Below, one piece after another: positions 10,483 through 17,759 of a stretch of DNA of 64,000 nucleotides. This stretch comes from Alphaproteobacteria bacterium (GTDB lineage: Bacteria; Pseudomonadota; Alphaproteobacteria; SP197): positions 960,001 to 1,024,000 of the forward strand of contig OZ219920.1 of NCBI GenBank assembly GCA_964291415.2. The letters run 5' to 3'. The position numbers and the translations under genes are program-made. The notes under the pieces were generated by a model. That model was not told the origin of the DNA. It did not search any database and saw only the letters and a list, made by a program, of their open reading frames with translations. How positions within the stretch are numbered: position 1 is the first letter of the stretch; each line of letters begins with the position of its first letter.

Positions 10483-10888
10483 CTATGGCGTCCTTCTTGC
10501 TCCGAAGGCGCCGATGTAGCCGGTGGTGTCGAAGACGCCCCAGGCCTCCTCGTGCGCCGGCCCGTGGAAGGCTCCGGAGAGGTGGTCGGTCCCGGCGACG
10601 CCCGCGGCGAAGCGGCCGCCGGCAAGCGGCATGCCGGTCCAGTCGCCGATGGTGTGGCCGGCCACGTCGATGCCGACATCGACCCGCGGCTGCGAGAGAT
10701 CGGCGATGGTCACCGTCGCCGTGCCCATGAGCCGCTCGAAGGTCCCCGTCGGGCTCGCCTCGGCGATGCCTCGCCACGTCGCGCTCCCCGTGCCGGCGGG
10801 GTTCGTGCCCGTGTCATCGGGCGGCGAGGGCCAGGGCCGCGGCCACCACGGCCGCGGTCATCACTGTCCTGGAGTTCATCGCAAGCAT
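10483..10888 (-). pseudogene. Internally deleted surface (lipo)protein gene: signal peptide fused out of frame to a TbpB-like C-terminal beta-barrel fragment
   Basis: MLAMNSRTVMTAAVVAAALALAAR* is followed in another frame by TGTNPAGTGSATWRGIAEA...LSGAFHGPAHEEAWGVFDTTGYIGAFGARR, resembling the transferrin-binding-protein-like small barrel. Confidence 0.55.
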
Positions 10889-12959
10889 CCCTCTTGTCAC
10901 GTTGGATCCGCGCCGGCTCAGAAGCGCAGACGCACGTCAAGCCTGAGCAGGTGCTCGGTCCCGGCGCCCTCGCGGCGCTCGCCCGCAAACTCGACATGCA
11001 GGCGCTCCGCCTCGAAGCGCGTCCCCAGCCGCAGCCGCCGGCTGTCGCCGCCGGCCACGCCGGTCTCCGCAAACGGCGTCAGCAACCCGTAGGGCGTCAC
11101 GCCCAGGCCGTAGCCGATGCGCGCGTCCAGCGCCATGGCGCCACCCGACGCCTCGCCCACCGTCGGCAGCTCGGCGCCCCACAGCGCCTCGGCGGCGCCC
11201 GTGCCGGCGCCCCAGTGCGGGCTCAGCATCAGCGACAGGCCGCGGCCCTGCGCCCCGGGACCGACACGCGCCGTCACGCTCACGCCGCGCTCCTCGGCGC
11301 CCTCCTCGGAGTGCGCCGCCAGCCAGCGGCCCCGCGCCTCCACATGGAACCGCGGCGCCGTGTAGCGCACGCCGCCCACGGTCTCCAGGCCGCTCCCGGC
11401 CAGACCGTCGCCGCCGTCGCGCCGCGCCGCCGCCTCGACGAAGGGCACCAGCGCCGTGTCGCCGTCCAGCGCAATGCGCCGCGACGCCTCCAGGCCCGTG
11501 CGCAGGCGCCAGCTGTCCGCCGTCAGGCCGTCCACATAGTCCGGGCCGTCGTCGGTCTCCAGGCGCGCCAGGCTGGCGTCCGCCCGCACCGCAAGGTCGA
11601 TGCCGGCCAGGGCCGGAAGCGCATGGCGCAGTCCCGCCGAGCCCATCCACATCACAAGGTCGCTGGTCTCGGCCTCGCCGCCCTCCAGGCGGTGCCGCGC
11701 CTCGCCGCGGCCGGCGCCCAGGACGCCGTGCAGTTCCAGGTCCTCCGACAGCGTCCACCGCCCGTAGGGGTAGAGCGCCGTCAGATCGGTCTCCAGGCGG
11801 CCCTCGCCGGAGCCCGCCGCGCCGTCGAAGCGGTAGTCCGCCTCGCCCGTGCCGTGGCTCACCGCCAGACCCGCCACCCACGGTCCCGACCGGGCGTCGA
11901 TGCCCAGCCAGCCCGTGCGCAGCTCGCCCTCGTAGCGCATCCCTTCCGGGCGCCCCGCGAAGGTCCCCAGATCGCCGCGGCCCCACACCGCCCACAGCGG
12001 TGCATCCGAACCCTCGGCCTCACCCAGCGTCAGCGAGAACGCGCTCGCCTGCATGAGCTCCCCGGCCTCGACGCTCCGGCTGCGCACCGGGGCGCAGACC
12101 TCGCCGGCGTCCGTCTGCCCGAGGCGGCCCGGGACGTCGGGCACACACCTCCGCCCCACATCCGCAGGAGCCGCCCCGGACACCCCGAACGGCACCGTCT
12201 CGCCGGCCAGCGTCAGACCGCTCGCCGGCACCGAGGCCGCAAACCGCGCCGCGATGTTGTCGAGCGCGCTCGACAGAGCCCGCCGCGCCACCGCCGCCAG
12301 CGTGCGCCGCACCGAGCGCTTCACCAGCGCCGTGCGGGCGTCCGCCACCGTCACCTGGAACGTCAGGATCGCCGCATCCGTGTCCGCCCGGTTGGCGTCC
12401 GCATCGTCCGCCCGCCAGGTGAAGACCCACTCTCCCTGCGACTCCGGCGTCCCCGACAGCCTCCGCGTCGCCGCGTCGATGTCGAGACCCGCCAGGCCCG
12501 CGGGATCCGAGGTCAGGGCGTAGCTCAGCGCGCCGTTGCCCCCCGTCGCCGCCGGCAGCACCGCAGGCTCCATCGCCTCGCCAACCGTCAGCACCAGGGA
12601 TGCCATCGGCGCCCCGAAGACCGGCGCCGTGTCGCGCACCGTCACCGTCACCTCGTCGCTGCCGGCCAGACCCCCCGGGTCCGTCACCGTCAGGCGGAAC
12701 ACCATCGCGCCCGACTCCGCCGGCGCCGTGAACGTCGCCCGCGCCGTGGCCGCCCCCGAGAGCGTCACCGACGCCCCCGAGACCTGGGTCCACGCGATGG
12801 CTCAGCGCGTCCCCGTCCGGGTCCGTGCTCCCCGAGCCGTCCAGCGTCACCGACGCTCCCGGATCCACCGCCACGTCCGCGCCCGCAGACGCCACCGGCG
12901 TGCCCTCCGCCGGCTCTTCCCCGGGCGAGCGCGGGGTGGAGGCCGGAGGCGTCTCCGTG

Positions 12960-14545
12960 ACGTTCATGACCGGATGGTCCGTGAAGCTCACCGCCGGGCT
13001 CCCCGTGCGGTCGGCACGCCGGATCGGGTTCGCGCCCCTGGTGTAGCTCACCGTGACTCGTCTCGCCCGCGGAGACCGCCGGGGCCAGGGTCAGCACCAC
13101 CGTGCTGCCGCTCACGTCGACGCCGGAGACGGAGAGCGCGTTGCCCGCCGCCGTCACCGTGAAGTCGGCCGGGGCAGGCTCGGAAGCCTCGTCCAGCGCC
13201 TCGTCGAAGGTCAGCGTCAGCACCCGGCCGTCCACCAAAGCGGACGCGAGCGCGGGCGTCTCCGTGACGTTGGTGACCGCCCGGTTCGTGAAGCTCTCGG
13301 CCGGCTCCCCCGTGCCGTCGGCGCGCTGGATCGGCTTCGTCGCGTCCGCGATGTAGCTCACCGTGACCGTCTCGCCCTCGTTCGCCGGCGCGGCCAGGGT
13401 CAGCACCACCGTGCTGCCGCTCACGTCGACGCCGGTGACGGAGAGCGCATTGCCCGCCGCCGTCACCGTGAAGTCCCCGGTCGCCGGCACGGAGCCCTGG
13501 TTCAGCGGCTCGCCGTAGTCCAGGGTCAGCATCGTACGGTCCACCCACGCCGACTGGAGCACGGGCAGCACTTCGGCCGGCGGCGGTCCGTAGGTCACAG
13601 CCATGGCCTCGATGTCCGCCGCCACGTTGCCCGCAAGGTCCTGGATCGGGTGGTCGCCAGCCACGCCCGTGAAGGCGTCGTAGTCCAGGGTCACGTTCTG
13701 ACCCTTCGTCACCGCCTGGCCCAGGGTCAGGGTCATCGTCCGGCCGGCCACGGTGACGGCGGTCACCGTCGCCGGGATGGAGGTGGCCCCCTCGGGGGAG
13801 TTGACCTCCATGTCGACCTGGAATCGGCTCGCCGCCGGCGTGCGGGACGGAGCCAGCGTCTCGTCGTAGGTCAGGGTCAGCACGTGCCCCTGCACGGTGG
13901 CGGCAAGCAGCCCCGGCGCCGTGGTGTCGGACGACGTGCGGTTGTCGGCCGCGACCCCGGAGAAGCCCGCCGCCTCGTAGCGGTTCGCGTCGGTGTCCCG
14001 GATCGGGTTCGCGCCCCTCGTGTAGCTCACCGTGACACTCTGGCCCGCGGTGACCGCGGGGGCCGCCAGGGTCAGCACGACCGCGCTGTGGGTCACCTCG
14101 ACGCCGGTCACCGACCGGCCGCTCCCCGCCACCGTCACCGCGAAGTCCCCGGTCGCCGGGACGGAGCCCTGGTCCAGAGCCTCGTCGTAGAGCAGCGTCA
14201 GCGTCGTCTGGTGCACCACGGCGCTCTTCAGCGTCGGCAACTTCACCGCGATGTTCGTGACCATCTGTCCCGTGAAGCTCTCCGCCGGATCCCCCGCGCC
14301 GCCGGCGCGCCGGATCGGGTTCGTGCCCTTCGTGTAGCTCACCGTGACCGCCTCGCCCTCGCCGACCGCCGAGGCCAGGGTCAGCGCGACCGTGCGGCCG
14401 CTCACGTCGACGCCGGTGACCGACACCGCGTCGCCCGCCGCCGTCACCGCGAAGTCCCCGGTCGCCGGCACGGAGTTCTCGTCCAGCGGCTCGCCGTAGG
14501 TCAGGGTCAGCGTCAGGACGTCCACCGAAGCGGTCGCGAGTACCG
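12960..14545 (-). repeat. About five tandem ~100-codon SwmB-like intragenic repeats
   Basis: Near-identical DNA blocks, e.g. 13083-13166 vs 13392-13475 (84 bp, two differences seen, 309 bp apart), with a third copy from about 14373. Confidence 0.8.
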
Positions 14546-16853
14546 GGCCGCACGCATACGCCGTCGTGGCGACGATCTCCTTCGACACCGACGCCCCGTC
14601 GCTGTCGGTCGCCGTCACCGTGACCGTCGTCGTGAACGGGCTGTCCGGCCGTGGCGCCAGCGCGCACAGGTCGGCCGCGTCCTTGATCGTGAAGAACGCC
14701 CGATTCAGGTGGGCGGCGTAGCCCATGTCCTTGACCGCGTTGGCGGGCTCCGCCGTCACCGTGACGAGCAGCTGGTCGGCGGTGGGAGTGGGGTTGGGGT
14801 CAGTCTCGGTGGGAACGATGATCTCGAGGTCGCCGGCCGCGATGTTCGGGTCGGCGAAGACGATGTCCGCGGTCGTGAGAGCGTCCGGGGCCGCGTTCGG
14901 CGCCAGGTGCTCCTCGTCCGCCACGGTCGCGGTCGGCCGCCTGTTGGACGTGTTCACCGTCACCGGGAAGTCCCTGAAGAAGGCCGATGTCGGGGAGGCG
15001 CCCGGACGGTGGCTCACGGTGACCGTGTCGCCTCCCCACGCCGCCTCCGGCAGCGTGAGCGTCACCGGCGTGGTATGCACGTCGCCCGAAGCCGAGCCCG
15101 AGCCCACCGAGACCGCGCTCGGCGTCAGCGCCCGCCCGTTCACCGTGACCGTGAACTCGGAACGCTGACACGGACGGCGTGATGGGGGTGAAGCCTACGC
15201 TGTCATCCGCGGGCCTACCCCTGTAGGACAGCGTCAGCGTCGTCCCGTCCAGCACGGCGGACCCAAGCTGCGGGCATAGGGGAACGTCGGCGTTGCTGAA
15301 AAAGCTGGTCAGGAGAAACTTCCGCGTGATCGACGCCGTCGCGCCGTAGGGGTCGGTCGCCGTCAGCGTGGCGGTGACCGTAGGATCCGACCCGTTCCCG
15401 CGCGGCACGAGCAGCGGCTCGAGGTTCGCCAGCTCGCATTCGCCCTTGGACGATGTAGAAGAGTTTGTTTGATGTAGTGTTTTCATTGAACTCGCCGGGA
15501 ACGTGCGCGTCGTCGCGGCTCAGGCTCAGCGAGAACGTCAGCGCGTCGCCGTCGGGGTCGCTGAACCCCGAACGGTCGAGCGTCAATGAGACCAGGGTAT
15601 TTGACGGCGCGTTGATGATGTTGTCCGCCGGGTTGTCCGAGGTCGCGGTGAAGACGGGCGCGCGGTTGTTCGCCCTCACATCCACCGCTTCGTTGGCGAA
15701 GGAGACCGTCTCGTTGCCGGCGAGGTCGCGGATGGGCCCGTGGCCGAAGCCCCCCTGGCGCGCGCGCGACTTGTCATACCCCACCGTGACGGACGTGGCG
15801 TTGGACGGCACCGCCTTGGCCAGCGTCAGCGTGACGCTGCTGCCCGCACCACGGCGTTGTTGACCGTCCACAGGCGGCTGAACGACAGCCCGGGCTCCTT
15901 CACCCGAACCGAGAAGGCCGGGGCGCCCGGATCCGATCCCGGGTCCAGCGGCTCGTCGAAGTTCAGGCGAAGCCGCTTGGGCTTCGCCGTGACCAGGACG
16001 CGCGCTCGAAAGGGACGGAGGGTGGTCCACCTCATTTTCATGGCCGTGGACGGCCATCTTGATGTTGATGTCAACACCGTTGTTTGCCCAGTTTCCGCTG
16101 CTGCCCTTGTTGACGCCTCTGTCCGCAATGCTCCAGCCCGTCGCCCCGCCCGAATCCTCGCTGTCGGAGGCCGTGAACCGCACTTGAGGGCCTCTGTCCC
16201 CCGCGCTGGTCGTCTCCAGCACCACGAAGTACGTCGTGTCGGCGTCCAGGTCGATGCCGTCGCCGGAGGCCGTGAACGTGTTGACCTCATGGGTCAGCGT
16301 GGTCGGGTTCGTCAGCGTGCCCAGGCTGCTGTCAGGGAAGCCGTCCGCGCCCGCCGAGAAGATGCTCACGGAATAGTCCGGCTCCGTCGTGTTCGCTGGG
16401 GCGTCAACGTGCACATCAATGCGCGCGTCCTTCAGCTTGTAGCCGCCACCGTGGCTGCCGGTGGTGAACCCTTGGCCGTAGACGGTGTTTGGATCGAAAC
16501 CAATACGGTTACTCGGTCGACTGAGCGGTGTTGTCCACCAGCGTGACCGACGTCTGCGCCTCGGCCGCCCCGGCGGCGAACAGCAGGGAGAACGCCGCGG
16601 CGAAGGCGGCGGCGGGCGCGGGGCGGAACGGCCGGGGACGTGAAGCAGACCCGGAAGAGCCAGAGGGCGCGGGGCGGCTGAAGAGGCCGGACAGGCGAGA
16701 GAAAAGGGAGGAGAAAGTTCCCGCCGCGAGGCGGGACGGCAGGCTCAGCGCGCGGGCAGGGCCATTCGAGGTGCGGGCATGTCGCTCCCGCGAGCGGACG
16801 GCACGGCCCATGGCGTCAAGCCACGCACGGAACGGTAGAGACAGGGGGGCTCG

Positions 16854-16996
16854 GCTCGGCGCTCGGCGCTCGGCGCTCGGCGGCGCTCGGCGCTCGGCGC
16901 TCGGCGCTCGGCGCTCGGCGCTCGGCGCTCGGCGCTCGGCGCTCGGCGCTCGGCGCTCGGCGCTCGGCGCTCGGCGCTCGGCGCTCGGCGCTCGGC
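16854..16996. repeat. Tandem heptamer repeat (GCTCGGC)x20 with one 3-bp GGC interruption
   Basis: Read directly: 4 units at 16854-16881, GGC at 16882-16884, 16 units at 16885-16996. Encodes (SAERRAP)n on the minus strand. Confidence 0.97.
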
Positions 16997-17181
16997 ATCC
17001 ACTTTACCACAAAGACCGCTTTCGCGAACCGGATTTTCGACACGAATCGAAGTCACCGACCTATCTCCCTCTCGAACAGGCCTGCGCCGCCGGCCGCACC
17101 TCCAGGCCGCGGCGCGCAGGACCGAAACCAACCGTTTCGACTCCACTCTCAAGGGAATCCAAGGCCCGGAAAATCCTTCAC

Positions 17182-17553
17182 AATTGCAGGTATCAAGGGC
17201 CTGGAAACGGGGCGGGGAGGGCTCGCGTCAGCGCCAGGGCAGGGCGTCCACGACCAGGACCTGTCGCACCACGGCCACCTGTCGCGATGCGCCCGGCTTT
17301 CTGCAGACCTGCCGGAACAGCCAGCGCACGTCGTTCTCCCGAAGGCTGGCGGCGGCGGCGAGCGGCAGATCCTCCGCCGCGGCGATGCGTTCGAAGGCAC
17401 CGTCCCCGGGTTCACGCCGCGTCCTCCCACGGCGTGTCCGACGGATCTGGCGAAGGAGCCGGCCGGACAGGAACCGCTCCGGGCGCCGCCGGCGGGCAAG
17501 CGCAGGCCAGCCGGCATCGGCAGGAATGGCATCCCGTCAAAATTGCAGGTATC
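17182..17553. promoter_or_regulatory. Duplicated 13-bp motif AATTGCAGGTATC upstream of the adhesin
   Basis: Exact copies at 17182-17194 and 17541-17553, each preceded by ATCC..TCA. Function unknown. Confidence 0.35.
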
Positions 17554-17759
17554 GATCTGAGCGGCGCACAAGAAATCTGGCGCGAGAGGCGGCCGATTCA
17601 GGCCGGCCGCTCGATTGTCGGCCGGCTGCGCACCGCAAGACCGGCAACAGGGCGGCCTTGCAGTGCGCCGCGCTTCATGCGTGCGCAGCTACCGGCGATG
17701 TCCCCGTGTCGGACGGACGCCAACCCGCGCCGCATGCGGAGTCTCAACCTACGTGGATG

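Follow-up and report, generated by a model that had tools for sequence, protein, structure and literature searches.

A heptanucleotide repeat array as candidate frame-dependent switch in the leader of an alphaproteobacterial autotransporter gene

Introduction

Repeat-driven phase variation is textbook biology of host-adapted pathogens. The opa genes of Neisseria, for example, carry a CTCTT pentamer in the region coding for the signal peptide, and the several paralogs of a genome switch independently. To our knowledge, repeat-driven phase variation has hardly been described for GC-rich environmental or symbiotic bacteria. Here, we analyse an array of the heptanucleotide GCCGAGC that precedes an autotransporter adhesin gene on the minus strand of a 64,000 nt stretch of alphaproteobacterial DNA (GenBank assembly GCA_964291415.2, contig OZ219920.1, positions 960,001 to 1,024,000 of the forward strand). 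This stretch is called the window, and positions are counted from its first base. An earlier note, made from the letters of the window, had proposed that the array is an ON/OFF switch of translation. As in opa, the unit is not a multiple of three, the repeat probably lies in the leader-peptide coding part, and the product belongs to a multi-paralog family of outer-membrane adhesins. The opa repeat, however, is located within the signal peptide after a single start, whereas the array described here lies 5' of a second start and is followed by a long N-terminal extension.

The O-acetyltransferase gene neuO of Escherichia coli K1, which resides on the CUS-3 prophage, contains (AAGACTC)n in its 5' coding region. 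According to the accessible part of the report, full-length translation of neuO follows n mod 3, and 42 of 64 genomes, with 3 to 53 units, are OFF (PMC13001214). Both repeats consist of heptanucleotide units near the 5' end of a coding frame. Unlike in neuO, the repeat in the window lies in a short upstream frame that precedes a second conserved start and a signal peptide, such that three outcomes are possible. Moreover, the unit is GC-rich and quasi-palindromic here, and the product is the autotransporter of a probably sponge-associated bacterium that is known from sequence only.

In hmw1A and hmw2A of Haemophilus influenzae, the transcript of the repeat forms a long RNA hairpin, as stated in the available sections of two reports (PMC12721329, PMC8262952). 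The (ATCTTTC)n repeat of hmw1A is part of the 5' untranslated region; the hairpin is cleaved by RNase III, and expression declines with increasing n (available sections of PMC12721329). The window shares with these genes a 7 nt repeat in front of a giant secreted adhesin. In contrast to the hmw repeat, which is an untranslated RNase III rheostat, sequence comparison points to translation through the array in the window, and its hairpin is formed by the array itself and not with a G-rich partner. Finally, direct repeats of the heptamer TAACTGA have been described in marine Beggiatoaceae, Cyanobacteria and Bacteroidetes, and their horizontal spread was suggested (available part of PMC4679880). 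Similar to these, a single tandem heptamer just 5' of start codons is common to distant lineages; the TAACTGA repeats differ in that they are not frame switches, as far as that part of the report goes.

The locus in the window combines features of neuO and hmw1A and adds an upstream frame with a stop beside a start. A full-text literature search with the doubled unit GCCGAGCGCCGAGC yielded nothing on this system, and a search for contingency loci in sponge symbionts yielded, in the parts of the texts available, work on shipworm symbionts only.

Results

The array links two start codons in a unit-dependent frame

The earlier note had counted 20 heptamers between GTG 17056, which is preceded by a Shine-Dalgarno (SD) sequence, and ATG 16811, the start of the signal-peptide frame. 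Tandem Repeats Finder (period 7, 20.0 copies, 95% matches, score 259) and direct reading of the minus strand agree on this number. The array has a length of 143 nt and consists of 16 perfect GCCGAGC units (16996-16885), an extra GCC (16884-16882) and four further perfect units (16881-16854), which are followed by CGAGCCCCCC. The segment 17073-17054 reads GAGAGGGAGATAGGTCGGTG and places GGGAG 8 nt 5' of GTG 17056. The coordinates of all features are listed in Table 1.

The array is free of stops in every minus-strand frame, and all three frames read (AERRAPS)n. The frame of ATG 16811 is open from position 17003 and is closed by a TAA immediately upstream. The frame that begins with GTG 17056 stays open across the array and beyond ATG 16811, up to TGA 16747-16745 (103 codons). 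The remaining frame, which contains GTG 17043 and ATG 17000, terminates 4 nt 5' of ATG 16811. GTG 17056 and GTG 17043 are located 245 and 232 nt from ATG 16811, respectively, so that one additional unit in the former case and one unit less in the latter results in an in-frame fusion. The frame arithmetic of the earlier note was correct. Like the unit lengths of 5 and 8 nt at the sister loci described below, 7 nt is not a multiple of three. Because the unit without its A is the palindrome GCCGGC, 16 units fold at -75.3 kcal/mol. A self-folding structure of this kind is expected to favour slippage.

Based on these data and the comparisons given below, the array is likely a contingency locus, and a frame-dependent mechanism is favoured. 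We consider it about an even chance that a short upstream frame contains the array as a hypermutable tract and that its exit frame sets the output of the adhesin. Ribosomes would start at the SD-GTG at 17056 and translate the array, and n mod 3 would determine the frame in which they exit; the gain or loss of one 7 nt unit, which we infer to occur by slippage, would shift this exit frame. For n = 21, 18 and so on, the upstream frame would be fused to the frame of ATG 16811, and an adhesin with a longer N-terminal extension would be made. For n = 19, 22 and so on, the upstream frame would end at TGA 16818, 4 nt before ATG 16811, where ribosomes could restart (coupled state). For the present n = 20, translation would proceed past ATG 16811 out of frame to TGA 16747 (overrun), and the predicted output is low or absent.

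Since ATG 16811 is start-capable and one frame ends 4 nt upstream of it, the number of states may be three and not two. The exceptional array, the conserved SD-GTG, the coding signature of related cassettes and the differences in unit number and size among related loci agree with the ON/OFF switch of the earlier note; the number of states and the breaks of the gene elsewhere do not. It is plausible that the present state is OFF, as the earlier note had claimed and as the overrun phase predicts. Against this claim stand the conservation of ATG 16811 as a start-capable codon and the occurrence of the overrun phase at related loci.

Table 1. Features of the autotransporter locus in the window. 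For frame breaks, X1 and X2 denote public sequencing runs, and depths are given for the shorter form / in total as reported.
Feature	Position	Strand	Basis
(GCCGAGC)n array, 16 units + GCC + 4 units	16854..16996	-	Tandem Repeats Finder and direct reading
Shine-Dalgarno-like GAGAGGGAGA and GTG 17056, start of upstream frame	17054..17073	-	kept in paralogs C and D
Upstream reading frame in present phase, 103 codons to TGA 16747-16745	16745..17056	-	frame reading
TAA closing the signal-peptide frame, in A-rich box TAAAGT, also readable as weak -10	17004..17006	-	frame reading
TGA ending the third frame (GTG 17043 / ATG 17000), 4 nt before ATG 16811	16816..16818	-	frame reading
ATG of signal-peptide frame; ATG/GTG in most relatives	16809..16811	-	called start of three database homologs
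Extended signal-peptide region, 85 codons, core AAAFAAAFSLLFAAGAAEA then Q	16556..16811	-	cleavage site by eye; homologs
GC-rich hairpin TCCCGCC-TCGC-GGCGGGA, then CU-rich tract with CCUCC	16719..16736	-	hairpin and CU tract at same place in related leaders
Upstream open frame, C-terminus like 427-aa PAS/GerE-like protein 5' of paralog B	17228..17536	-	sequence likeness
Type Va autotransporter adhesin: N-domain, SWM/Big_5 repeats, He_PIG, PKD-like, beta-barrel; split over frames	10921..16811	-	
Autotransporter beta-domain PF03797	11407..11988	-	profile search
Frame break, signal peptide / N-domain	16512	-	X1 one base fewer in one contig, depth 5 / 11.2
Frame break	15161	-	one base shorter in X1 contigs, depth 13 / 33.8
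Frame break	13058	-	one base shorter in X1 contigs, depth 18.1 / 18.1
Frame break before C-terminal part	12796..12799	-	one base shorter: X1 21.4 / 27.4; X2 2.7 / 2.7

Repeats of different unit length occupy the same leader position within the genus

In the following, A designates the gene in the window, B, C and D are its paralogs in the same genome (G000), and G011 and G006 are genomes of the same genus. The complete genome (4.44 Mb) was scanned for perfect arrays of 4-12 nt units with at least five copies, or at least four copies for units of at least 6 nt. Only two such arrays exist, namely the heptamer array of the window and (GCCGA)18; the heptamer array is therefore not a chance feature. 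The pentamer array (G000:C4:546147-546236, locus L001:10148-10237) lies on the coding strand, about 290 nt 5' of the signal peptide of paralog B. Both arrays are found approximately 250-290 nt 5' of the signal peptides of paralogous autotransporter genes. Just 5' of (GCCGA)18, stops in the sequence CTGATTAAG close two frames, and a single upstream frame stays open.

The leaders of paralogs C and D are nearly base-for-base identical to that of A, but contain only one or two degenerate units at the array site. Both have kept the SD sequence and the GTG of A; the GTG frame continues into the signal-peptide frame without a stop, and stops close the remaining two. C and D differ in length at the repeat site, and in their alignment the indels 3' of this site are multiples of three. 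In paralog C, the codon that corresponds to ATG 16811 is GTC.

G011 contains two related loci (G011a and G011b; L003 and L173) with 12.4 and about 4.7 GCCGAGC units. In G006 (L170:2203-2321), (GGTCGCCG)14.9 directly follows TTGACA-N20-TATAAT and precedes a homolog with an open frame of 2,089 aa; with a TTG about 190 nt 3' of this array as start, a textbook signal peptide, MGRGLRPVLAAALLALPLLAALPTGAEA, would result. Units of 5, 7 and 8 nt hence occur at the equivalent leader position within one genus. The unit numbers of related loci vary as well: 20, 12.4, 6.9 and about 4.7 heptamers, 18 versus about 16 pentamers, and 14.9 octamers. A DNA search of 40 relatives with positions 15800-17600 found no homolog of the leader outside the own genome, but only array matches and fragments of regulators. 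The motif TGACGCC(A/G)T(G/C)G has about 90 matches in the genome of the window, and its presence alone therefore means little.

The upstream frame of related cassettes carries a coding signature

Five loci (two of G011, G030, L077 and L084) share a cassette whose upstream frame encodes the motif CAKWLE. Among codons 5-16 of its core, five are invariant, four differ by synonymous changes only, including CTG/CTT/TTA for Leu, and three differ non-synonymously. The differences at the first, second and third codon positions number 26, 8 and 30, which means that the second position is depleted (8 of 64). Summed over all pairs, 26 synonymous and 18 non-synonymous changes were counted in the upstream frame, as opposed to 1 and 38 in the +2 frame. 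Judged by this substitution pattern, the short frame that enters the array in the CAKWLE cassette is under purifying selection. In a further cassette, TNRDPGGIIG of L039 and TNRDDAGGIMV of G006 differ by four synonymous changes and a 3 nt indel.

Other features of the loci concern starts and stops. An SD-like motif and a start codon lie 40-60 nt upstream in several types of cassette. Stops in two or more frames are present within 30 nt 5' of the array in 18 of 78 loci, compared to 143 of 2972 random positions. The first start 3' of the array overlaps a TGA as (A/G)TGA in L028, L075, L077, L079, L091, G011, G030, L023 and L018. Fused forms exist at loci G030, L077 and L084 and among database proteins, where P0005 contains (PSRAE)5 and P0008 contains (SAERRAP)6. 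In a gappy alignment of A and B, the overrun frame shows 6 synonymous and 9 non-synonymous changes and the signal-peptide frame 0 and 11; neither this comparison nor that of A, C and D singles out a frame of the leader decisively.

The array and parts of the leader are found in several phyla

Species-representative genomes were scanned for five heptamer units. Many GC-rich taxa have GCCGAGC arrays of five or more units, with at least 123 such places in total, and 80 loci were then examined. The array is located directly 5' of a long open reading frame (ORF) on the same strand in about 20 of these 80 loci. Among the matches listed, many arrays have no obvious link to a secreted gene, as is the case in Halomonas and Streptomyces.

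Among G011, G030 (which belongs to another family of the same class), L077 (metagenome assembly of a gammaproteobacterium) and L023 (metagenome assembly of a member of the Vicinamibacterales, Acidobacteriota), identity over the 90 nt that follow the start is 78-87%. L018 of Candidatus Palauibacter (Gemmatimonadota) contains a degraded copy of the leader with 59-66% identity. A heptamer that is accompanied by a leader of 78-87% identity in different phyla suggests that a regulatory module, and not a gene, was transferred. A metagenome scan for the upstream motif of the A type, GAGAGGGAGANRGGTCRGTG, gave 31 stretches, none of which is followed by the leader, and the alignment of the upstream starts of A and L079 gives weak homology.

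Genomes of Halomonas contain many GCCGAGC arrays each, often with ATGATG within a few bases, in a context unlike that of the adhesin cassettes (L016, L017, L033-L038, L046, L052, L056, L059, L061, L064, L065, L073, L078, L081, L082, L086, L088, L089). The ORF downstream of the array in L035 looks LexA-like by eye. In L028, three tandem copies of ACGGTATAA lie 5' of the array and end in the TATAAT that adjoins it; the A/T-rich box is therefore itself part of a short repeat.

Transcription from the array as an alternative to translation through it

A number of observations, given in this and the following two sections, weigh against translation through the array as the basis of switching. The upstream frame of A, C and D lacks an excess of third-position differences, the counts for the three codon positions being [4,2,3], [2,6,4] and [5,5,5]. 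Between array and signal peptide, a synonymous excess was found in no frame. In most relatives, ATG or GTG is found in place of ATG 16811, and the homologs P0004, P0006 and P0011 have their called start at this codon. Furthermore, a -10-like box lies at most 20 nt 5' of the array in 25 of 75 loci, versus a background of 5.3%. Several of these boxes are perfect TATAAT sequences, in agreement with a transcription start at the array.

These observations would be explained by a leader repeat of the hmw type: transcription would begin just upstream of or within the array, translation would begin at ATG 16811, and the length of the array would set the stability or processing of a long RNA hairpin and in this way tune the amount of adhesin instead of switching a frame, for which hmw1A with its (ATCTTTC)n provides a precedent (available sections of PMC12721329). 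We regard this alternative as unlikely, though deserving serious consideration. TATAAT, TACAAT or CATAAT is found 0-5 nt 5' of the array in L028, L036, L039, L079, L070, L090, L076 and L023, TATAAT directly precedes the octamer of G006, and paralog A has TAAAGT. A conserved ATG or GTG follows the array, the RNA of the array folds as a long hairpin, the leader contains a conserved hairpin with a CU-rich tract, and constraint at the protein level is absent downstream of the start. However, a sigma-70 scan of 16500-17500 detected no promoter-like site, and the perfect pairs of TTGACA and TATAAT have spacers of 7, 20, 20 and 22 nt (determined by eye), none of 16-18 nt. The upstream frame that contains the box is constrained as coding sequence in the CAKWLE and the L039/G006 cassettes, and in G011b a change of the Leu codon TTG to CTG alters the putative -35. 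In addition, ATG 16811 is not preceded by an SD sequence, and the fold of the whole leader is no more stable than that of shuffled sequences (z = -0.36). Hexamers complementary to the array are not clearly enriched downstream (137, compared to 86 upstream, in 74 loci), and a clear complementary arm as in hmw was not found for the array.

The leader has further conserved elements. The hairpin and the CU-rich tract with its anti-SD-like CCUCC (16736-16690, minus strand) recur at the equivalent leader position in other phyla despite differences in the encoded residues. A conserved mini-ORF of 11 codons (16789-16745, minus strand) has its own GGGAG-N4-ATG and ends at the TGA of the overrun frame; the encoded peptide is MPAPRMALPAR* in A as well as in C, and MPAHLEASLTR* in D. 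A search against Rfam gave no match at E <= 1.

The adhesin gene and its frame breaks

The earlier note had described the product as a giant adhesin. The gene is that of a type Va autotransporter, and its whole product would comprise about 1,960 aa. The PF03797 barrel (E = 2.4e-11, 44.3 bits versus a cut-off of 26) was also detected in the search of the whole genome and ends with ...LRLDVRLRF at 10921. The passenger comprises six SWM_repeat/Big_5 units (E = 3.7e-80) as well as He_PIG and PKD-like domains, and the N-domain is common to database homologs. The signal-peptide-like segment AAAFAAAFSLLFAAGAAEA, followed by Q, is encoded downstream of the array. In this assembly, however, the ORF from ATG 16811 comprises only 100 codons, to TAA 16511-16509, and the description as one giant protein is in this respect not borne out. 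At least five further frame breaks occur within 5.9 kb (~16512, 16000/15846, ~15161, ~13058 and ~12796), and signal peptide, passenger and barrel are nowhere combined in one open frame of this assembly. The first break (~16512) cuts the conserved N-domain, as seen by comparison with P0009 (...AEAQTSVSLVDNTGQSTSDIVGFD...FTTGSHGGAYKL). Due to these breaks, the repeat alone does not decide the reading of this copy, and it is an inference that this copy can be functional at all.

Contigs of four public sequencing runs were compared over 10900-16930; since the likeness threshold was 90%, other strains may add to the depths. Forms that differ by one base are present in the public contigs at each frame break of paralog A (Table 1), and further indels were seen at 15998, 16000 and 15846/15847. 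Whole alleles therefore probably exist in the population. Either paralog A of the window has decayed while other alleles are whole, or the consensus contains errors at the breaks; the assembled unit number should be taken as one allele. The depth in the bin 16758-16930 (5977 in X1, 688 in the RNA run X5) stems from repeat words across many contigs and was not used as evidence. Short pieces without any difference were present in sponge-metagenome runs (X2 record 10; X3 records 19 and 23), which fits a sponge-associated source organism.

The frame breaks could also mean that there is no working switch: the copy would be a decaying pseudogene or a mis-assembled consensus of strains, and the array a neutral, structure-driven expansion of a slippage-prone GC-rich motif. 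The genes rpoB (open frame of 1,618 aa) and rpoC (1,407 aa) are whole, and the assembly is therefore not generally ridden with indels, which makes at least five breaks in this gene stand out. Paralogs B and C are also split over frames, and the homolog P0009 carries a frameshifted tail of its own. In line with such an expansion are the many GCCGAGC arrays without a downstream secreted gene among the at least 123 places, and the contamination of the genome is estimated at 8.99%. We nevertheless judge this explanation improbable. Both long short-unit repeats of the genome lie at the equivalent spot in the leaders of paralogous genes, and three unit sizes occupy this spot within the genus, one of them in front of an open gene of 2,089 aa. 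Moreover, features of the start, the stop and the upstream frame around the arrays are conserved across phyla, and the one-base-different contig forms at every break speak for whole alleles.

Several observations concern the neighbourhood and the relation of the paralogs. Positions 12948-13531 contain a tandem duplication of 309 nt (1.9 copies, 83% matches) within the SWM-repeat passenger region. Over the C-terminal 1.77 kb, paralogs A and C are 98% identical, which suggests recent gene conversion. A small ORF just 3' of the autotransporter gene (10486-10857, minus strand) ends with ...HEEAWGVFDTTGYIGAFGARRTP and has no Pfam match; similar ORFs are found 3' of paralogs C and D. Its C-terminal motif may resemble that of surface-lipoprotein barrels. 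The 427-aa protein encoded 5' of paralog B matches PAS_8 and GerE of Pfam, both below the cut-off. The C-terminal part of the ORF 5' of the leader (17153-17361) is repeated in the own genome at G000:C2:304415-305373 and in genomes of the same genus, at three places in G014 and in G016.

The overrun phase is common to the repeat-bearing loci of the genus

Each of the five loci with a repeat that were found in the genus (A, B, two of G011, and G006) is in the overrun phase, including the one that precedes the open 2,089-aa homolog; given the first, the probability of this outcome by chance is approximately 1 in 81. In each of them, the upstream frame ends at a TGA in the context CTGA(G/C)C. Either OFF is therefore common, or overrun is not OFF. 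This agreement in phase fits none of the readings neatly. It is in line with an attenuation-like mechanism, in which the upstream frame would be a separate leader peptide whose stop position controls a downstream RNA structure; a stop at TGA 16747, 9 nt before the hairpin 16736-16719, would be permissive, and the present phase would be ON. The stop is followed by a hairpin that resembles a terminator and has a T/C-rich tail, and a similar TGA context is shared by the five loci, but the tail is CU-rich and no run of U, the TGA stands in different frames relative to the start in two types of cassette (counted by eye), and fused forms are known elsewhere, which makes this explanation very improbable.

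Discussion

The conserved upstream start, the stops that close the alternative frames and the coding signature of related cassettes argue for an array that is read by ribosomes, and translation through the array into one of three exit frames is the mechanism that we favour. A broader interpretation is possible, and we put it forward tentatively, as somewhat less probable than not: the array and its surroundings may represent a horizontally mobile 5' switch cassette, common to several phyla, that exerts stochastic three-state control over giant adhesins in symbionts rather than in pathogens. Such a cassette would comprise a translated upstream frame, stops that close the other frames, a hairpin-forming repeat of 5-8 nt units, a start that overlaps or adjoins a stop, and an extended signal peptide. 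It appears to occur in the class of the genome analysed here, in Gammaproteobacteria, Acidobacteriota and Gemmatimonadota, and some of these bacteria seem to be associates of sponges or other invertebrates.

A working switch would mean that the largest surface proteins of sponge-associated bacteria are varied stochastically. This would bear on how symbionts deal with recognition by the host, with phages and with their neighbours. The combination of an upstream frame, a repeat and a stop that adjoins a start could be a new route to more than two levels of expression from a single repeat.

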